This document shows, one piece after another, positions 6,991 through 42,906 of a stretch of 64,000 nucleotides of DNA (its first letter is position 1; every line of letters starts with the position of its first letter). A program made the translations under genes and the position numbers. The notes beneath the pieces were generated by a model. The model was not told the DNA's origin. It made no database searches and saw only the letters and a program-made list of their open reading frames with translations. Source of the stretch: Podarcis cretensis (Eukaryota); NCBI GenBank assembly GCA_951804945.1, contig OX638155.1, forward strand, positions 29,326,001-29,390,000, in the 5' to 3' direction.

Positions 6991-8726
6991 ACGTTTCAAA
7001 GACAGAGGAATTTGATGTGGTTTGGTGACAACCTTAATCATGGACCTGACCAGTGTCTTATGTATTGATGGTAATTTATCTCATTCTTCTGAAATAGAAG
7101 CTAAAGGTTTGGATAGTTTCAGTGATGGTGGAAAAGGTCCCTCTTTCCTGTGATGAAATCGGCCAATCCCCCCCTCCCCCTGTTTAGTAAAATCTGGAGC
7201 ACAGATCATTATAGTGCCTTTGGCAGCTAATTTGAACATCAGTGACTCAACTTTGAGAAGGAGCTTTTTCTGCCCTAAAGAATATCTCAGAGTTTTCCGA
7301 CTGCAGTAATTGAAAAATCCCCAAACACTCGCTCACGGAGGAGATGCACATTACTGCAGGAACAGTCTACAAATTGTAAAGTATTCAATTTACATTCCCA
7401 CCACCTCAGGGCAGTTGAGAAGAATTTATATCTTCAGAAACCTTTGAACTAACAAAAGATAAGATTCAACAGCAAGGTCTACTTGCATAAAGATTTTTTT
7501 TATTTTTTTTAAAGCTCCCTTCATTTTTGTTCTGAAGGAAATATCTTGTTGAAACTGAGGTTAAAGTCATTTACCTGGAACTTACGAAAGCACTGCAGAG
7601 AGGAAGAAATGAGTTATGGACATGCTTGTGATTCCTGAATTGTGGCTAATCAAGGGAGCTTTTCATGGTTATCCAGGTGTGGCCGCCACATCAAATAGCC
7701 ACTGGACTTCATTGTGTATGGGTAGCCATTTTGTGTGTGGAAGCAACATCCATGTTCAGGTCATTTTAAACACAAGCTGCCCTCAACATATCACATCACA
7801 GCATTTGAGGCCCATTTAGTGGTTTTTCCTAAAATGAAGTCCACAAGAAAACAGTTAGGCTGTAGAATGTATTGCTTTGCAGATAAATCCAAAATTTAAT
7901 GCAAATTCTATTCATTTCCGAACACAAAAGCCAAAAGATCCCCATAAACAATGTCAGTGCAGTTATTTATTAACAAGTGTAAATAAAATAAATAATCATT
8001 TAGGAAAAATGAGATGTAGTTCCACGATGGATTGTGTCTGCTAAAAGATTGCATATCTTTAAGAGTCAATGGAGATTTTTTTCTGTAACTTGCAAATCTT
8101 GAGATCATGAAGGAGCTGCTCGGTTATGTTGTTTTGCCATCGTGATGTTTCTCTCATAATTTACATTACTATCACCTCATATCCACTTTCCTTATAAAGC
8201 AGGGGTGGATAGCCTGAGACCTTCCAGAAGTTTCTGGACTACAACTCCTCTCATCCATGATCATAAGCCATTCTTGCTGAGGTTCCATGAATGACTAGAG
8301 AGCCTATGCTCCATTGCAAAAGTCTTCAAAATCATTTGAAGAACTACTGTGTTTCTGTTTGCACATTGTTTTGAGAAGTACAAAAAAGCAGACTCTCATT
8401 AAAACACAAACTTAATTTCTTACCCATCACCAAGTAAAGTTTACTCATGGCTGAATCCCACTGAAACCAATAAAAACAAATTGTCCATAGCTTACTCAAG
8501 ACCGTCTGCTTTTAGTTGGGCATAATTAGGATAAACTTTTGCTAGATTAGGGTGACAATGAAGTTCTTCTTAAATGATGTTGCCATAACTTCTTACTTGC
8601 AGGAAAGGTGATATTTTTGCATCTCTCACTCCAACAAATCTGAAAAGTCCTTGTCCCATTAAAAAATATGCTGCAAAGTTGGGAGTTTCTTCCAGAAGAA
8701 AACATTTGAGGAATTTTAAAGAATGT

Positions 8727-33328: not shown

Positions 33329-33686
33329 GTGGCGCTGTGGGTTAAAGCCTCAGCGCCTAGGACTTGCCGATCGAAAGGTCGGCGGTTCGAATCCCTGCGG
33401 CGGGGTGCGCTCCCACTGCTCGGTCCCAGCGCCTGCCAACCTAGCAGTTCGAAAGCACCTCCGGGTGCAAGTAGATAAATAGGGACCGCTTACCAGCGGG
33501 AAGGTAAACGGCGTTTCCGTGTGCGGCTCTGGCTCACCAGAGCAGCGATGTCACGCTGGCCACGTGACCCGGAAGTGTCTCCGGACAGCGCTGGCCCCTG
33601 GCCTCTTAAGTGAGATGGGCGCACAACCCCAGAGTCTGTCAAGACTGGCCCGTACGGGCAGGGGTACCTTTACCTTTACCTTTACC
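33329..33686 (+). mobile_element. Sauria SINE, young subfamily
   Basis: B-box GGTTCGAATCCC and (ACCTTT)n tail. Confidence 0.95.
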
Positions 33687-34863
33687 AACTAGCTTCCTGC
33701 TATATATTGGGGAATGCACTCTGCTTCTGACTCACAAGTGTGAGTTAGGAAGGATACTATTAAATCAATATATCCACTCCTAGTATCTACAACATTGCCA
33801 CAACCCAGAGCACCACATCTGCTCTGAGGGACTGGGGCTACCTCAGGATGGTTTTAGCAGATGCACAGGCGGAGGAGGGGACAGGTTCCCTTGTGCATGG
33901 ATTCTTGTGCATGGAACAAGTTACTTAGTGGTACATTGGTTACAATCCCTGATCTGTAACCCTTTGACTACTTTGTGGATTGAAACTGAGTGATACCCTG
34001 GATTTCACATTTCTCTTTATGTCATGACACCTTTCTCAAACTTATCAAGATAACACTTGATTACATTTAAAAGGTTCGATTTTACATTCACACTGTGCTT
34101 TCCTGTTGCAATAATACTCAGAGTAGCTCACAATTCAAAAATATGCTATACAAAAACAATGACCGCTCCCCACTTAAAACGGGGGGCGCCCTTTGCGGGG
34201 ACGCGTGCAGCCCTGGATCTGGAGTGGCCCCATCAGCATAGGCTTTGCCTTCCCTCAGGTGGGATACCTGGAGATCCCCGCCTACCCCAGTGAGTTGTCC
34301 AATCCCACCTGGGGGAAGCGTTGCCAGGGAAACCAGGCCAGGTAGGGGGAGGGATTACCTGCCCACACAATAGAGGGTGGATCTTAATTGTTAATCCTCA
34401 CTTGGCTCCAGAGCTTCTCCTGGAAGGACGTTGCTGTACTTCCTTGCTCCAAAAGGTAAGCCTGGGGCCTTTGGCCTCCCCCCCCCCCCCCGCGATTGGG
34501 TTCCAAAGGCTAGGGGGGGGGGGTTTAATGGATTCCAGGATCCCCTTTTAAAAAGGGGATCCTTTTCCCTAGGCGGGCCCTGATGCCCTGGGGTGCTGGG
34601 CGATGGCATGGGGGCCCCTCTGGCTGCCCCCCCATGCCTGCGGGGGCGTGTGGGCCGCGGGGGGGAGGCAACGCCACACGTGGCCCCTTCCCCTTTCCCT
34701 GCTAGGCCTGGCGCCCCTGGGGTGCGGTGGGTGGTGGCGGAGGGGGTCCCCGGCCACCCCCCAGGGCCTTTGTGGCCTCCAGGCGGCCTTTTTTAGGCCG
34801 CAGGGAGGCCTGCCGCGTTTTGGGGGCCTTACTAGGCCTCGGGGGGGCTCCGCCGGCCTAATC

Positions 34864-35765
34864 GGGCCTTGGGCGGCCCCGGAGCCTCCCCTGGGCGGCA
34901 GGGGCCTTCCTGCCGCCCCCGCGATTGCCGGGGGGGCACAGGCCGCGCCGTGTGGCCTCCCCCCGGCTCCAGAGGCCTAGCTAGGCCTCAGAGAGGCCTG
35001 GCTGGGCCTCGGGAGGCTCCGCGGCCTAAGCGGGCCTTGGGCGGCCCCGGAGCCTCCCCTGGGCGGCGGGGGCCTTTCTGCCGCCCTCGCGATTGCCGGG
35101 GGGGCACAGGCCGCGCCGTGTGGCCTCCCCCCGGCTCCAGAGGCCTAGCTAGGCCTCAGAGAGGCCTGGCTGGGCCTCGGGAGGCTCCGCGGCCTAAGCG
35201 GGCCTTGGGCGGCCCCGGAGCCTCCCCTGGGCGGCGGGGGCCTTTCTGCCACCCTCGCGATTGCCGGGGGGGCGCAGGCCGTGCCGTGTGGCCTCCCCCC
35301 GGCTCCAGAGGCCTAGCTAGGCCTCAGAGAGGCCTGGCTGGGCCTCGGGAGGCTCCGCGGCCTAAGCGGGCCTTGGGCGGCCCCGGAGCCTCCCCTGGGC
35401 GGCGGGGGCCTTTCTGCCGCCCTCGCGATTGCCGGGGGGGCGCAGGCCGCGCCGTGTGGCCTCCCCCCGGCTCCAGAGGCCTAGCTAGGCCTCAGAGAGG
35501 CCTGGCTGGGCCTCGGGAGGCTCCGCGGCCTAAGCGGGCCTTGGGCGGCCCCGGAGCCTCCCCTGGGCGGCGGGGGCCTTTCTGCCACCCTCGCGATTGC
35601 CGGGGGGGCGCAGGCCGTGCCGTGTGGCCTCCCCCCGGCTCCAGAGGCCTAGCTAGGCCTCAGAGAGGCCTGGCTGGGCCTCGGGAGGCTCCGAGGCCTA
35701 ATCTGGCCTTGGCTGGCCCCGGAGCCTCCCCTGGGTGGCGGGGGCCTTCCTGTCGCCCCCGCGAT
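34864..35765. repeat. 168-bp GC-rich tandem repeat, ~5.4 copies
   Basis: Units start at 34864, 35032, 35200, 35368, 35536 and 35704; each full unit carries the palindrome GAGGCCTAGCTAGGCCTC. Confidence 0.97.
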
Positions 35766-36484
35766 CCTGCCTCCCCCGGCTGCAGAGGCCGCTGGCAACT
35801 CTGAACCTCCCCTGGGCAGCAGGGGGGATCTCTGCAGCCGGTGGGTATACCCCCCTGAGTCGGCCCCGGGGGACAGTGTGGGCCCCTGCTTGCCCCACCC
35901 CCCCTCAAACTGTGTGGCGGGGGGGTGGAGCCACATCACGGGGCCCTGCCAACCCACTGTAGGACTGGTCTCTGTTGGGGGCGTGCAGGGCCTGCTTGGG
36001 GGTGGCCCCATGTCTGCAGCCATTTCAATGGTGACCGCATGGCGGCAGCCATTGCGCTGGTGGCCACATGGCGGCAGCCATCCTGGATCTGGCCGCATGG
36101 CAGCGGTCATGCCTCGGTGGTCCTCAGGCACACCTATAGCCTCATTAGGTACGTATTGGTTTTACATATCACCACCATGACTTGCCAGCAGGTGCAGTGG
36201 ACAGCAGGCATCGCGCTCATTATCGTCGAGGGGAGACCGCCAATGGACCTCAACTGAAATCTGTGCAGTGATTTTCTAAACTATTGCTTGTTATTTTGCA
36301 GCCTTCAGTAGCGATTCCTGCTGTGACTCAGTTCTTGCCTTATCTCCTCCCCTCCCATTATCTGTACCATTACCTTTATCACTAGTGTGTTTTTGCAAAT
36401 TGATAGCGGGCATTTCCTACCAATCATTGCCCCCCCCTTGTTTTCCGGATTCCCTAGCATACCCCACTCTATCAGCCCCACACC

Positions 36485-37740
36485 ATGCCGCCAAAGCGTC
36501 AGGCTGCTTCTCCTCCCCGCACCAGAAGGGGCACTGTAAGGGGCGCGCCCACCAAGCCTGCCCAGAGACAGGCGACTGGACAGCGGAAGGCGCGTCCAAC
36601 CAGGGAGGAGCAGGCCAAGCCCAGGAAGACCGCGCCCAAGAGGGCAGCGGCACCTAGAGGGTCTTCTGGGTCCATAAGCCCACTAGCCTTGGCAAGCCAC
36701 GCCCGTCTTGAGCGGCGGGATTCGCGCAGAGGGCGCTCTGTGTCACCTCACAGCCGCAGGCGAGGGCGCAGTAGCAGCTCCGCTGACCGCCGTGCTCAGG
36801 AAGCGGGATCACGCTCATCATCCGCATCCACCAGGCGCAGAGGTAGGTCCCCCCGTTCCAGCTCCTCTGACAGGTACAAGAGTGACAAGAGCCCTGAGTC
36901 GCGCAGATCGCGTCATCGCGGGAGGAAGCACCACAAATCCAGGAGGAGGGGCCACAAGTCCAAGAGGGACTCTCCTGGATCATCTAGTACCTCAGGTAGA
37001 TCCAGCTCCACTGATAGTGAACGGGGGGGGGGGGGAGCATCAAAGGCTATTGGGTTACAGGCCCCCACGCCCCAGGGCTGCCGCACTGGGTCTGGCGGTG
37101 CCGCACCGGAGGCACAGGCGTGAACATGGTGCTATCGCGCCATGCGGGGAGGAGGGCACTGACTCCAGAGGTAGAATTAGGAAATCCAACCACAAAAGAA
37201 CCGAGCAGCCCCCAGGCATTCGCCTGCGTGAGAAGTTGCGGGAACGCATCCTTAATGGGGAGTTCGTGGATTTGTTTGATCTGCTATCCCCTGCCGCTTC
37301 GACAGCCCTAAAATCTAAATCCGCCGAGCAGAAGGGGGGGGGGAAAGTGAGTGTTGAGCGTACCTTTCGTAATTGGCTCACTGCATATACCACTTATATG
37401 GGTATTATAGTCACTAGTTACCCTGACAGGGGTTGGCACCTGACCAACTACCTACTCATCATCCTAAAGGCTGAAGCCATGTCTGGGGGGGGAGGCGGCA
37501 CTCGCCTATGACCAGGCATTCAGGGAGCGGGCGGCAGAGGACGACACAGTTAGATGGGATATCAAAGATGATGACGTGTGGTCTGAGTTGGTTTCCCCGT
37601 TCTTCAAGAAAGGGCCCAACAATGTGAAACAGTCCAAATATCAATCCAAGGCCCCCTAGAGATCTTGCTGGGAGATCTTGCGAGCGCTGTAGTGGATCTC
37701 ACCCACCATCAAATGTATTTGGGGGAAGAAGCTTTTTCGA
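36485..37740 (+). pseudogene. DIRS/Ngaro ORF1 (gag-like), frameshifted at G-runs
   Basis: Arg/Ser-rich N-terminus, then RILNGEFVDLFDLL...FRNWLTAYTTY...ALAYDQAFRERAA...WD motifs typical of DIRS ORF1. Confidence 0.8.
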
Positions 37741-37849
37741 GGCTCCCGTGGATCAGGCACAGGCACATCTCATGACAAAAGAGAGGCCGGAGCCTCTACA
37801 GGCTCCTCTGGCGCTCAGCAAAGCAAAAACAATGCCCGCAAATAGTGTT

Positions 37850-39066
37850 CTCCTTTCCCTAGCCCCCTCACCCATATCTCTATCAGCAATGCTGCTTTTG
37901 TTACACCAGTACCCTAATAAAGAGGCAGCACATTGAGGAGGGCTTTAAGGAAGGCTTCCGCATCCCAGTGGTAGGCACCCCCTCATGCACCAATCCCCCC
38001 AACCAAAAGTCTGTCCGAGATATGCCACACATTGCCGAGAAGAAGATTACCAAAGAACGCTTGCTGGGGCGAGTGGCAGGTCCCTTCACAGAACCTCCAT
38101 TTCCAAACTTCATAGTGTCTCCACTAGGTATTGTACCTAAGAAGGCCCCAGGCGAGTTTCGATTAATACATAACCTTTCTTACCCAAGGGGTGGGTCAGT
38201 AAATGATGCCATTCCTCAAGAACAAGGCTCAGTCAAAAATGCATCTCTTGATCAGGCAATCAGGCTGGTTAGGGAGTGTGGCCCGGGCGCGCTCATGGCA
38301 AAATGTGACATCGAATCAGCCTTCCGTCTGTTACCAGTCCACCCCGGGGACTTCTGGTTGCATTTGTGGTATGGGCCATGAAACGCAGGTCAGGGTCCCA
38401 CCGCATTTCCCATTACGTCCAGCCAGCGGGCTCAGACGCGTGCGCTAGGGCGCTGGCATGCTTCATTCAGCTGGCAGCTGAATTGGGCATCCCATTGGCA
38501 GCGGACAAGACCGAAGGTCCAACCACTGTCATCTCATATCTGGGTATTGAACTGGATTCTGTGAGCCAAACCTCTCACCTGCCCCTGGCCAATCTTGCCT
38601 GCTGCCTAAGGAACAGCTACAGGTGCACTCTGACGCCTCTGGTCGCTTTGGCTTCGGCACTTACTTCAGGGGTCACTGGTGCGCGCAGCCTTGGCCGACA
38701 TCTTGGCATGAGGAGGGCATTACATGTGACTTAACTTTCCTTGAGTTTTCCCAATCCCGTGTTTGGGGGCACCTCCTCAAGGACACCAGGGTGTGCTTCT
38801 GGCCGGACAACCAGGCGGTGGTAAGAATCATTGCGAAGCAATCCGCAAAATCCAATAGGGTAATTCGCGCGCTCCGTCTCTTCGTGCTGGAATGTCTGAA
38901 AGGTAACATTTCCTTTTCTGCACGGTTCATCCCGGGCCTCAATAACGACATTGCAGATGCCCTGTCTCGCTTTCAGGTGGAGCGCTTTCGCGACCTAGCA
39001 CCCGAGGCCGATCAACTCCCAGAAGCCTTTCCGGAGGACCTCTGGGAAATTGGACGGGAGAAGTGA
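37850..39066 (+). pseudogene. DIRS-type reverse transcriptase and RNase H, with internal deletions
   Basis: SPLGIVPKKAPGEFRLIHNLSYP; MAKCDIESAFRLLPVHP; KTEGPTTVISYLGIELDS; RNase H SDASG, DNQAVV, NDIADALSR; LPxG and YxDD regions missing. Confidence 0.92.
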
Positions 39067-39971
39067 CAGCAGGAGTTCTGGGCGCCCTTGCACCATCAAC
39101 GCTGCGGTCCTACACCAGAGCATGGTCCCAATTCGAGGGGTTCAGAGATAAGTTTAGCTTACGTCGCAGGCGTACAGCTAAGGAGTCTGATGTTCTAAAA
39201 TATTTGGTTCACCTAAAGCGTAGGGGCATGGCCCTTAAAACCATCAGCCTGCACAAGGCCGCTATCTCCTACTTAAGCAACTGTTTTGGCTCCCAGACCC
39301 CTGTAACACTTTCCACGTAAGGAAGCTTATTGCAGGGTGGCGTCACTCCCACCTGCCCATTCCAGATAAGAGGAGGCCAGTAACCATAGAGATCCTCCGG
39401 CTGATCTGGGATGCGCTCCCCAGTATTTGCTGGTCCAACTATGAGGTCAGGCTCTTCAGGGCAGCCTTCTCCCTATCCTTCTTTGGTGCGCTCCGTATCG
39501 GGGAGTGCATAGGGGGCACATTGTCACCTCATCGCAGGGGCTTGTCTGTGGCTGATATCAACCTTGACAGGCGCATGATACAAGTCAAAATCCAAGCCTC
39601 CAAAAACCGATCAACTAGGTAGGGGTTCCACGCTAAGTCTAGCCTCCTCCCCACACACTGGACCATGCCCTGTCGCGGACACACGCAAATTCCTGAAGGT
39701 ACATCCTCCGGGGCCAGCCCCCCTCCTCATTCATGCATCAGGCCGCCCCATGACCCGTTGCCAATTTGTCTCAATATTGCGTAAGGCCATCCATGCTTGT
39801 GGAGGCGACCCGGCACAATTTTCCGGGCATTCCTTTCATATTGGTGCAGCAACCTCGGCAGCTGCGAGCGGCCTCCCGGCGGAACACATAAAAACAATGG
39901 GGCGGTGGCGTTCAGCTGCCTTCAAAGGCTATATTCGAAACAACCAGCAGACACTGACAGATACCATATAA
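39045..39971 (+). pseudogene. Tyrosine recombinase (phage-integrase family)
   Basis: LAPSTLRSYTRAW; FFGALRIGE (catalytic R); SK/TDQ; GHSFHIGAAT (HxxR with R>H); GRWRSAAFKGYIR (W, Y); two frameshifts. Confidence 0.92.
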
Positions 39972-40113
39972 TCCTTTCTTTCAGGCTCAACCCCCAAACA
40001 TGTGTGGATCTTTGGCCACAGCATAGTGCATTCGGTGGCCATCCATGCCACTACTGGTCCAGGCGGAGAACATCTTGGTCTGCAGCCAAAGATCTCCATT
40101 TCCTGGTTCGGCC

Positions 40114-40561
40114 AACGTGGAATGCGATGGGATGCCCTGCTCCCTTGGTTGCGTCACGAACTTGCGTTCCGCCATCCGCCAAACGCGGTTGTGCTCCACC
40201 TTGGCGAAAATGACTTGGTCGTGCAAACGTGGAATGCGATGGGATGCCCTGCTCCCTTGGTTGCGTCACGAACTTGCGTTCCGCCATCCGCCAAACGGGG
40301 TTGTGCTCCACCTTGGCGAAAATGACTTGGTCGTGCAAACGTGGAATGCGATGGGATGCCCTGCTCCCTTGGTTGCGTCACGAACTTGCGTTCCGCCATC
40401 CGCCAAACGCGGTTGTGCTCCACCTTGGCGAAAATGACGTGGTCGTGCAAACGTGGAATGCGATGGGATGCCCTGCTCCCTTGGTTGCGTCACAAACTTG
40501 CGTTCCGCCATCCGCCAAACGCGGTTGTGCTCCACCTTGGCGAAAATGACTTGGTCGCACA
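40114..40561. repeat. 112-bp tandem repeat x4
   Basis: AACGTGGAATGCG at 40114, 40226, 40338 and 40450. Confidence 0.97.
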
Positions 40562-40608
40562 AAAAAGCATAATTCTGATCAAAACAGCGATCGCGGACCT
40601 GGAAAGCG

Positions 40609-40700
40609 TACATGCCGCTCACCCCAACATCATGATTTTCTGGTCTGAAGGAGCTACATGCCGCTCACCCCAACATCATGATTTTCTGGTCTGAAGGAGC
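40609..40700. repeat. 46-bp tandem duplication
   Basis: TACATGCCGCTCACCCC...GAAGGAGC at 40609 and 40655. Confidence 0.95.
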
Positions 40701-40793
40701 TATGGTGGGCACCTATCAGACCGTGGTAACGAGCGTTGGCTGAGCGACATCAGGCATGGCCTGATTGACTGGTTGGAGGATGGCAAAGGGGAT

Positions 40794-41151
40794 TTTCAGA
40801 TGTAGGTAGTCTTGGCGGCGAGACCGCAATCTTTGCGGTATCAGGCCTTGGGCGGAATCCTTTAGTCCATCTTCCTCTTTGCGGCGGCGATACCAGGGTT
40901 CCCCGTTAAAGGGGTTTTTGAAGGGAGGCTTTGGCCGTACGCCGAAAGGTCGTCATTGCTCTCCCCTGCGGCGGCGTAACGGGGGCGGCTATCTCTGCTT
41001 GAACATATGTTCTCCAGAGCCGGCCCATCCCCCACACACACACTGGATAACCCTGATGCTCCCTAGGTCCCCGGCTGGGGACTAGGGAGGGAGAACGCCC
41101 AATGCCTGAGCCAAGGTCTACCCACATTTGAAATTTAATAAAGTTGTGGCC
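40794..41151 (+). ncRNA. Putative structured cis-RNA in the 3' region of the Ngaro element
   Basis: Nested helices 40794-40816/41110-41133, 40841-40854/41096-41109, 40894-40900/41049-41055 and 40901-40908/40977-40984, plus four hairpins, followed by AATAAA. Confidence 0.65.
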
Positions 41152-41294
41152 AATTTAATCCCATAGCACGTTGTCTAGAGTCGTTATTCCACATGACGGG
41201 GGGGACCACTCGGGATCTGGGGACTCCGCCTGTCCACGCAATATAAAATACAGAACACAATATAAAAGATGAACTACAAGATACTAAAATTATA

Positions 41295-41525
41295 TAGTGG
41301 TACCTCGGGTTACAGACGCTTCAGGTTACAGACGCTTCAGGTTACAGGTTCCGCTAACCCAGAAATAGTACCTTGGGTTAAGAACTTTGCTTCAGGATGA
41401 GAACAGAAATCGCGTGGCAGTAGTGGGAGGCCCCATTAGCTAAAGTGGTACCTCAGGTTAAGAACAATTTCAGATTAAGAACAGACCTCCAGAACAAATT
41501 AAGTTCTTAACCCAAGGTGCCACTG
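41295..41525. mobile_element. Tigger-like MITE
   Basis: Sister of 32278-32503; TA flanks. Confidence 0.9.
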
Positions 41526-42906
41526 TATATTAAATACAATCATATCATTAACAATTATATACCAGTTGTTGTTTCTTTTCCTATCCTCAGTGGGGTAGAG
41601 GCTCCAGAATTCTGACCCAGATACCCCAACACCATCCCAAAATGCTACCCCTACCCAGTATCCACCTAAGAGCAGCCATCCAAGGAACTAGCCTTGCACA
41701 TCTCTTGTCTCCCTTGGACAGTTTCAGACATTATTTGGCCATCATTCTGTGTCCCCGCTATCCCACTCTTCAACTGTTCACCCTTGGCTGAGAGCTGCAG
41801 AATGGGAGCCCTCTTCCTCTCACCAGTTAACTCATGCCCTTGCTAGGCACAACCCTTAAATAAAATACCTGAGGAGGTAGGAATTATCCCTCCCTGGTGA
41901 GATGTGTCTTGTTCCCTATTACCATCTGAAAATGTTCCTGTTCACTCAGGTGTTTAGTACCTGAAGGCAGGGTATGTACAGTCATCAGCTTGGAAATCAA
42001 TGTATATATTAGGGGATTGCATAGTCCCCAAGGTTCGCCTTATATCTGTGCATTTAAAAAAATTCTAATCTGTTTCTGAATCACTTTGTGCTCTCACCAC
42101 TTCAATCTCTGCTCCAGGTTCAGAACTGCTTTGTATGCAATATTCCCCATTCACTCTAATGAGGAAGCAAAAAGATGGCTATAACTTTTGGCCAAAGTGG
42201 TTGAACTTTACAGGCAGGGGAGTCCCTCCAAGGTAGATTGAACCTGCCAAATCATAGGCAGATTAATCCCGGAAGGGGGGGGGGGTTCTGCAAGAAATGG
42301 ATGCAATTTGTAAGCATGGTCACCCCATCTTAGGGTATGAAGCCCACCAATTTTCAGAATGATAGCTCATGTGGTCCTGCCATAATGGTAGACTTTATCA
42401 CTTTGGAGTGGGTACAACAGGGTAATTGGTGGTGGTGGAAATGCAGCAACCCCACCCCAGTGGATTTTGGGGAAACAGTGGAGATGCCTCCATTGACTTA
42501 TAAAGGGGATAGAGATGGAGGTGGTGGAGAAAAGATGATAATATAATGGGATCTTAGTTTACCCTTCAGAGAGCTGCAATTTTCAGCACCCTTAGCAAAC
42601 TGCAGTAACCAGGATTCTGTGTGTGCGCGCGCGCACGCGCTTTCAATATATGGTGTGTATGCAGCCTGAATCTCACACAGCATTACTGCTTCTGTTCTCT
42701 TCTGTGAAAAGTGTTGCAACTTGTTAGTCTTCTCTTCACTGAAGGGGGAGCCGTGATCTTGTGCGAGTTCGCAACGCCCGTGTTGCACAGCTACTATGGG
42801 CAGATATCTCATGTGAGCAATATTTTAAGCACAGGCACTTACCGTCTCTGTTGCCATGTGTTGCCGTGTGTCTACAACAGCACTGCTGTGTGTGTGTGTA
42901 GGAATA

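Follow-up and report, generated by a model that had tools for sequence, protein, structure and literature searches.

A young, defective Ngaro copy in a lizard genome and the repeat loss of its hydrolase-bearing family

Results

The insertion at positions 34161..41242 of the window, a 64,000-nucleotide stretch of Podarcis cretensis DNA, is, with a probability of about 0.85, a young member of a hydrolase-bearing Ngaro family, a defective copy that likely lost its tail through a homology-driven join of two repeats, B1 and B2. Ngaro elements carry split direct repeats in the order A1…B1-A2-B2, and DIRS1-like elements carry an ITR and an ICR. Beyond B1, canonical copies of the lizard family have a further 853 nt, made up of A2, a spacer of 182 nt and B2. 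The window copy has only A1 and one B and, as first noticed from its letters, no second copy of either end lies within it.

Boundaries and parts of the window copy

The boundaries proposed by the sequence-only reading are real: the orthologous site is empty, with a single CAAT, in three other organisms (runs X5, X9 and X12, one junction contig apiece), the left flank running into the right flank within each contig. In the 482-nt X5 contig, bases 1-402 correspond to 33759-34160 and bases 399-482 to 41239-41322; the flanks occupy bases 1-413 and 410-496 of the 501-nt X9 contig; and the 187-nt X12 contig matches up to 34157 with bases 1-111 and from 41241 with bases 113-186, its core carrying one substitution. 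There is thus one CAAT and no target duplication. Run X1 (organism A), whose right flank has a coverage hole, covers the left junction only, at 0 differences. Probes for the two ends gave 40 matches each: those to the 5′ probe all start near 34158-34161, and those to the 3′ probe all stop at 41241-41242 or close by (query 522-534). The empty site bears out the single CAAT described earlier, but the core shared by the family is AA. Of 100 copies that retain both ends, just 30 have a left flank with CAAT as its last letters; positions −3/−2 are AA in 97 and 96, position −5 is a purine in 95, and a T precedes GACC in 98. The right end is AAT in 52 and AAA in 45 and, given this variation, the T before GACC appears to derive from the element and not from the target. 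The family target is RNAAW with an AA core. At the left junction (CAAT, 34157..34160, forward strand, as are all features below), which the empty-site contigs cover, the AA core is 34158-34159 and T34160 is likely element-derived; at the right junction (CAAT, 41239..41242) the AA core is followed by the third base of the target.

Repeat A1 (34161..34420, 260 nt) is identical or nearly so to A2 of canonical copies. The 5′ internal region holds a GC-rich tandem array of about 5.5 copies of a 168-bp unit (34854..35825). It is followed by ORF1 in four pieces (36458..37842), gag-like by position and without a Pfam match, by a reverse transcriptase (RT)/RNase H remnant in four pieces (37628..39063) with two inherited deletions common to sibling copies, by a tyrosine recombinase (YR) remnant in three pieces (38946..39968), and by an SGNH/GDSL hydrolase remnant (39972..40802) with tandem duplications of 112 bp (40104-40551) and 46 bp (40609-40700). 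The copy is defective, all four ORFs being split or duplication-bearing. The single repeat B (40835..41242) contains AATAAA at 41137-41142. Just before it lies a remnant of the hairpin found upstream of B1 (40819..40839), which has suffered a 13-nt loss seen in 0 of 53 other long copies, and thus private to the window copy, and is joined at GCGGT (40835-40839), the candidate breakpoint of the tail loss. Over 5,139 columns the window copy has 6 private deletions and 10 private substitutions.

An ITR and an ICR had both been reported as missing. A long ITR and an ICR are indeed lacking, but "no ITR" was too strong, as 28 of 39 columns (72%) are complementary between 34193-34230 and 41203-41241. 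This sub-terminal complement is the stem of the B/A junction hairpin, which canonical copies carry too; its 3′ arm (34193..34230) is complementary to the end of B, where the 5′ arm (41203..41241) lies. Near 40953, 8 nt that are the reverse complement of the junction were considered as an ICR, but the match does not extend and was set aside as chance.

Assignment to the Ngaro elements

RT was recognized in sibling L166 (RVT_1, E=4e-11), and the window copy retains pieces of it at 73-95% identity. It is followed by what we take to be an RNase H motif; Pfam gave no RNase H match after RT, and some homologues are called ribonuclease H in UniRef. The RT/RH ORF runs straight into the recombinase, detected as Phage_integrase in L166 (E=1.3e-6) and as Phage_int_SAM_1 in the window copy (E=5.4e-5). 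After it comes a hydrolase ORF (Lipase_GDSL_2, E=4.6e-7; 31.0 bits, just below the curated cut-off of 32.9), and an SGNH hydrolase ORF in this place is a feature of amphibian-type Ngaro elements. Of the 321 homologues, the 120 listed are lizard, amphibian and other proteins that are unnamed or generically named. A Pfam search of five ORFs of L166 gave no methyltransferase at E<=0.05, and neither the ITR plus ICR and methyltransferase domain of DIRS1-like elements nor a PAT-like methyltransferase was found. Canonical A1…B1-A2-spacer-B2 repeats (hereafter B-A-B) are present in the family, in 20 of 54 long copies (from 55 motif sites, 1 without an element) and in 5 of 6 junction-only loci. The window copy itself lacks split direct repeats and is classed as a defective derivative, not a complete element.

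Repeat loss has occurred many times in the family

The remaining 34 of the 54 long copies have a single B, and on chromosome C1, 77 of 95 copies are solo A-spacer-B units and 3 are B-A-B. A canonical majority had been named in advance as the observation that would refute a repeat-free element. There is no such majority, yet this does not signal a repeat-free lineage: the low B-A-B share reflects heavy repeat loss, since 34 of 40 RT-intact copies from other Ngaro families of the same genome are B-A-B and 6 are single-B. Among the six closest siblings, which share the three inherited deletions of the window copy, four are B-A-B and two single-B. Judged by A+B, the window copy is nearest to L189 (single-B, 0.15%) and L156 (B-A-B), two copies that differ from one another at 0 positions across these repeats. 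Single-B copies are scattered over the copy tree, with 8 changes, and grouped in 0% of 200 bootstrap trees (AU p=0.042), on a tree of about 650 columns in which few branches are supported (6 of 55 starred), only 3 changes are forced and the bootstrap is not fully settled. They occur in three inherited-deletion classes (+++, ++D and DDD) and in two that are partly scored, each time alongside B-A-B copies. Single-B copies are polyphyletic and have arisen repeatedly.

The sequence-only reading had offered two explanations, a distinct terminal architecture, with an RNA fold in place of the repeats, and a B1xB2 recombinant. The canonical siblings and the scatter of single-B copies support the second. 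A self-propagating Ngaro that pairs its ends instead of using split repeats could point to the 34 single-B copies among 54 and to the complementarity of the ends at 28 of 39 columns, but we consider it scarcely credible, and largely already refuted: there is no single-B clade, each deletion class also contains B-A-B copies, canonical copies have this fold too, as their ordinary junction hairpin, and an RNA running from inside A to near the poly(A) signal would presumably not include both arms. Repeat loss in Ngaro copies is, moreover, already published, and the claim of a repeat-free architecture falls. It is also very improbable that B1-A2-spacer-B2 was collapsed during assembly of the window locus. 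B1 and B2 are near-identical and just 442 nt apart, and B is not bridged by read contigs; against this, 26 internal junctions were resolved in the window family and 34 in the others, many with 100% identical repeats, and the 13-nt loss at the start of B is private.

Timing and route of the probable tail loss

The loss of A2-spacer-B2 would have occurred by a homology-driven join of B1 to B2, and would have left the window copy unable to rebuild its own ends. At 40835-40839 the join may be a single 866-nt step from the hairpin before B1 to the start of B2. Since B1 equals B2, with no fixed diagnostic sites between them, a crossover cannot be mapped. Deletions at the start of B were found in 3 of 34 single-B and 0 of 20 B-A-B copies, too few to count.

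We lean slightly towards recombination after insertion, and give somewhat less than an even chance to a jump of the reverse transcriptase. The B-A-B share is 12 of 19 among copies with a nearest-neighbour distance under 0.5% and 3 of 15 above 2% (Fisher p=0.017; Mann-Whitney p=0.046), although the successive bins (12/19, 3/11, 8/14, 3/15) are not monotonic and are confounded with subfamily. Single-B and solo copies might instead be made at replication or integration, by a jump from B2 to B1, by use of the poly(A) site in B1, or by joining of a regenerated B to B1 and not to B2. This alternative, which concerns the route only, falls a little short of even odds in our judgement. It fits at least as well as recombination with the similar single-B share of full-length and truncated copies (10/16 and 15/25; Fisher p=1.0) and with the 7 single-B copies already present among the 19 of the youngest bin. 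The identity of L189 to the B-A-B copy L156 across A+B, the 13 solos that C1, which is 9.4% of the genome, by itself contributes to the youngest bin, the ratio of private deletions to substitutions in the window copy, and the closer resemblance of the join region to what directly precedes B2 than to what precedes B1 also speak for it. Against it stand the richness of young copies in B-A-B, the B-A-B predominance among RT-intact copies of other families, and the solo LTRs of ERVs, which, in the part of the source available, also show a deletion rate that falls with age (PMC4335370). The excess of solos was dropped as an argument against recombination, because many more solos are also expected if the rate scales with the spacing of the repeats. 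Splicing into AG/GT runs of the spacer was rejected as a source of solos, which join A straight to spacer base 1.

A C-rich tract marks the end of A

Among 35 elements, representing about four independent lineages of one genome, 33 have a tract of four CCC runs at offset −2 to 0 relative to the point where A1/A2 identity stops, against a background of 3e-5 per nt. The exceptions are L209, without the strict motif, and L247, with the tract at offset 11; within the window family, 12 of 103 copies have lost the motif. Its loop letters vary between lineages of 55-87% RT identity while the four runs of three stay, and on the minus strand the tract is predicted to form a G-quadruplex. Deletions that start in A cluster beside it, 25 of 28 starting within the last 44 nt (A217-258). 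All 24 mapped landing sites differ, and the 0 shared breakpoints led us to reject a multiplication of short copies. Copy L158 has an extra G and a repeat of A236-260 at the end of A1. A1 and A2 share lineage alleles up to nt 231 in 15 of 16 elements covering those sites, and lineage-site differences between B1 and B2 were seen in 1 of 26. The junction hairpin has z-scores of −4.1 to −6.3 in seven of nine representatives and of −0.6 and −1.3, not significant, in the other two. None of 26 internal junctions was of the permuted type (A-spacer-B-A-internal-B) expected from a two-junction circle opened at either junction. An ENE-like fold of the spacer is not supported: searching Rfam with 1,401 nt of L159 gave nothing at E<=1, and the predicted folds of seven spacers were mutually inconsistent.

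The position of this tract, the clustered deletions, the identity of the A and B pairs, the absence of permuted copies and the junction hairpin suggest a replication cycle. An RNA would begin close to the end of A1, near A236, reach to the poly(A) site of B2 and serve as the template for minus-strand DNA. Priming at the start of B1 would give a plus strand that copies B1-A2, about 670 nt, and halts at the G-quadruplex on the A2/spacer border, and this strong-stop DNA would jump to the minus strand at its 3′ end. The still single-stranded, hairpin-folded B/A junction would then be used by the recombinase to enter an RNAAW target, and both termini would be copies of a single B1-A2 block. We give this cycle as a whole roughly even odds. 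The end-of-A2 tract could instead be a protein-binding or promoter element and no polymerase stop, such as a GC box, a CACCC box or a poly(C)-binding site. This explanation, which bears on the replication cycle only, we regard as rather unlikely. The tracts do include CCCGCCC or CCACCC words, and the downstream half of the spacer is visibly conserved across families, which indicates that the spacer has other functions. Against it, the loop letters change while the four C-runs stay, and in lineages with A repeats that do not align to those of the window family the tract starts no more than 2 nt from where A1/A2 identity stops. A binding site also leaves the truncation joins just upstream unexplained.

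Discussion

The quadruplex-type tract at the end of A, the clustered truncations, the full-length repeat identity and the absence of permuted copies yield a concrete model that simple assays can test. We tentatively extend it, at slightly under even odds, to split-direct-repeat retrotransposons generally: these might rebuild both ends from a single plus-strand B1-A2 strong-stop DNA, its 3′ end being set by a minus-strand G-quadruplex, and full, single-B, solo and A-joined truncated copies would be alternative products of one cycle. If so, the fossil copies in a genome map that replication cycle, and a DNA structure would define the end of a retroelement repeat. In the literature available to our search we found no paper on a quadruplex or strong-stop DNA in Ngaro or DIRS elements, and a test of the replication cycle for DIRS-1 only and for no split-repeat element; part of the present picture may already be described by Goodwin and Poulter (2004) and by Poulter and Butler (2015). 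For annotation, roughly 800-900 solo units in the lizard genome belong to this one family and resemble solo LTRs, and a library entry built by majority rule would be without repeats.

The closest known systems are DIRS-53_XT and DIRS-54_XT of Xenopus, which, in the accessible part of their description, likewise have gag-like, RT/RH, YR and SGNH ORFs in the same order and A1…B1-A2-B2 repeats, 100% identical in young copies (PMC9210276). The lizard family differs in its A of 260 nt, B of 411 nt and unique 182-nt spacer. Many Xenopus Ngaro-like copies are without all or part of the repeats, and the DIRS-54_XT consensus is without them though some copies have them (PMC9210276). In its accessible part that account does not separate single-B copies from other losses, although its Table S2 may list them, and does not mention a target motif, a truncation pattern or a G-tract (PMC9210276). 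Solo AB repeats of a Cafeteria Ngaro (PMC8547959) and SIRE, which consists of A2, unique sequence and B2 of VIPER (PMC6681497), are, as far as the available text of these sources goes, ascribed to recombination between 5′ and 3′ repeats or left open in origin. The window copy is the reciprocal product, with the inside kept and A2-spacer-B2 lost; solos make up about 80% of the lizard family copies on C1. Dictyostelium DIRS-1, also a YR retrotransposon, rebuilds its ends from an internal junction template, the ICR, which was shown to be essential, shares a short core at insertion and has mostly single-stranded cDNA, according to the portion of the source available (PMC7192593). Its LTRs are inverted and it carries an ICR and a methyltransferase domain, whereas the lizard family has direct repeats, no methyltransferase match, and a shared core of 2 nt with a free third base. 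The solo LTRs of ERVs, as described in the available part of PMC4335370, arise by crossover of identical repeats; in the lizard family, by contrast, the two pairs of repeats yield a solo and a single-B product, and there is neither an integrase nor a target duplication.

The insertion at 34161-41242 and its empty site

The insertion at 34161-41242, a GC-rich island of 7,082 nt in a genome of 1.5 Gb, contains no N (the window has 419, all of them outside 34101-41300). Four sequencing runs out of 24 listed were examined for the orthologous site. In contigs from three other organisms (X5, X9 and X12) the two flanks adjoin directly across one core, as an empty site, and the fourth run (X1, organism A) contains the left junction. 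We conclude that this is a genuine, recent insertion that left no target duplication. Its boundaries recurred in 40 matches for each end probe, and self-comparison agreed with the earlier observation that no second copy of either end is present within 34161-41242. High-copy repeats occupy 33600-33800 in the left flank (depth table). A very high-copy MITE-like element with inverted ends (41292-41530) begins 50 nt right of the insertion, and its left part is also found in the empty-site contigs.

The window copy retains remnants of a gag-like ORF, RT/RH, tyrosine recombinase and SGNH hydrolase, each broken compared with the natural sibling L166, and it carries tandem duplications of 168, 112 and 46 bp. 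Among the matches listed, the closest named RT homologues belong to lacertid lizards (83% for a protein of Zootoca), which makes a lacertid the probable host. The target consensus, drawn from 100 copies in which both ends are present, was R-N-A-A-W, and the element's own GCAAT junction repeats this pattern. The left end is T in 98 copies and the right end is AAT in 52 or AAA in 45; thus the exchanged core is AA. CAAT, previously taken as the crossover core, did not hold up, as its C was seen in 30 of the 100 copies and is incidental.

An ordinary defective Ngaro derivative

Canonical (B-A-B) copies of the family consist of A1 (260 nt), the internal region, B1 (411 nt), A2, a 182-nt spacer and B2; single-B copies lack A2-spacer-B2. 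Exact-pattern searches, which miss mutated copies and older ones most, returned 974 genome-wide matches for the B end (control 7), 895 for A-to-spacer, 55 for internal sequence adjoining B and 25 for the B|A junction. On one chromosome, C1, all 95 elements behind 98 B-end matches were classified as 77 solo A-spacer-B units, 5 single-B, 3 B-A-B and 10 other, which scales to about 820 solos genome-wide. Solo AB units are already in print (PMC8547959; PMC6681497). Of the long-copy sites (all 55 examined), 20 are B-A-B, 34 are single-B (the window copy among them) and one holds no element. Some family copies are neighbours: L098 is 6 kb from L099 and oppositely oriented, L045 and L047, on opposite strands 37 kb from each other, share near-identical flanks (a local inverted duplication), and L078 and L079 overlap.

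The window copy has three inherited deletions, of which two lie in RT/RH, in common with four B-A-B copies (L156, L157, L159 and L160) and two single-B copies (L189 and L194); with L162 and L158 added, these copies show nested inherited RT/RH deletions. Therefore an RT-defective lineage with canonical ends kept multiplying, presumably copied in trans, and single-B copies split off from it. The sequence-only reading had described the window copy largely correctly, and its proposal of a repeat-free architecture is not supported, given that canonical siblings share the inherited deletions. We class the window copy as an ordinary Ngaro derivative that is defective.

In a tree built from 59 long copies (A+B, 653 columns), 8 changes are required to explain the distribution of single-B, with only 3 changes forced by supported branches; a single-B clade appeared in 0 of 200 bootstrap trees and was weakly rejected by an AU test (p=0.042). 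We also inspected 40 copies from other families, picked from 76 RT matches (query, another family's protein) to be mostly of intact frame and spread over identity groups. Six were single-B and 34 B-A-B (two with a shortened B2, one in which no A1 was found); thus tail loss is common to all Ngaro families sampled. The same RT search had 2,609 candidates. Young elements with intact RT frames and repeats that are ~100% identical form at least 10 RT clusters (L209-L248, many contigs), and Ngaro appears very active in this genome. Four copies (L234, L239, L240 and L242) lie inside 186-bp or 178-bp satellite arrays.

The two ends of the window copy can pair in 28 of 39 aligned columns and correspond to the outer stem of a hairpin predicted at the B|A junction of canonical copies (z=-4.2; 0 of 200 shuffles as good). 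Of 9 representatives, 7 gave z scores of -4.1 to -6.3 for this hairpin, and in 2 it was not significant. An RNA fold substituting for the repeats was not borne out, the stem being present in canonical copies too; the predicted end-to-end pairing belongs to the normal element and does not replace its repeats.

A C-tract and a candidate replication cycle

The A2/spacer border opens with four CCC runs separated by 1-3 nt loops. This motif has a background frequency of 3e-5 per nt. Measured from the point where A1/A2 identity stops, its start falls at offset -2 to 0 in 33 of 35 elements (42 given minus 7 without an A pair), which represent about four lineages of 55-87% RT identity, all from one genome. 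The A of the window's family aligned with no other lineage's A. Of 103 copies of that family, 91 retain the motif; in the window copy it is gone along with the spacer. We take the minus strand of the tract to be a textbook compact G-quadruplex (predicted); in each of the 8 representatives its G4Hunter-type score (1.75-1.9) ranks within the 0.8% most extreme windows. By eye, families with differing A repeats show conservation of the spacer's 3' half and of the bases that open B (for example L159:9074-9255 and L225 ori 8074-8234), and a search with L159 gave no Rfam match. This stretch precedes B2 alone and may thus promote or protect transcripts that end there.

The deletion tally covers those that begin within A or up to 310 nt beyond it, setting aside purely internal deletions and five direct A-to-B joins (A ends at 164-250). 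Of the 30 counted, 28 start in A, 25 of them at A217-258. Their junctions have overlaps of 0-9 nt or short inserts, and all 24 mapped landing sites differ, 14 lying no more than 1,000 nt upstream of the B1 end, a pattern much like that of 5'-truncated cDNAs. Of 16 informative elements, 15 have the same lineage alleles in A1 and A2 as far as nt 231, and 25 of 26 show no difference between B1 and B2 at lineage sites; each cycle therefore seems to reset both repeat pairs. L100 (C1:62.94 Mb), whose A1 matches a different lineage at nt 228 and 231 while its A2 keeps its own alleles, is possibly a two-template product. No permuted copies were found at 26 internal junctions. In L158, A1 ends with an additional G followed by A236-260 repeated, which is the one hint that a capped transcript may start near A236.

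From these patterns we infer one cycle that would join the C-tract, the A-end deletions, allele resetting, the absence of permuted copies and L158. The plus strand would copy B1-A2 from the minus cDNA, stall at the predicted quadruplex and jump to the cDNA 3' end, by homology if the cDNA is complete and by microhomology if it is short. The single-stranded junction would then fold and be used by the recombinase; the internal junction, already double-stranded by then, would not be. The main rival to a quadruplex stall is a protein-binding role of the C-tract. The model had no match in the part of the literature searched. The main interest of the finding lies in this testable model.

Route of tail loss

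Among long copies grouped by nearest-neighbour distance, the B-A-B share was 12/19 (<0.5%), 3/11, 8/14 and 3/15 (>2%), with p=0.017 for the first versus the last bin. The higher share in the youngest bin favours loss after insertion, at a rate dropping with repeat divergence, and we assign post-insertion recombination a probability of roughly 55%. That the tail was instead lost at replication is nearly as likely: the youngest bin already holds many single-B copies, and their share is the same among truncated (15/25) and full-length (10/16) elements. A 13-nt loss where B begins is unique to the window copy. The sequence before its join is closer to the spacer/B2 border than to the B1 border, so the copy may have arisen in a single step that led from the pre-B1 hairpin into B2, but it has five other private deletions.

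By either route, the window copy should be a dead end because it has no internal B|A junction, the ICR being essential in DIRS-1 (PMC7192593). Post-insertion recombination has a parallel in ERVs, in which the rate of such loss is reported to fall as repeats diverge (PMC4335370), similar to the B-A-B trend here. Xenopus Ngaro copies likewise lose repeats (PMC9210276), as do those of the window's family.
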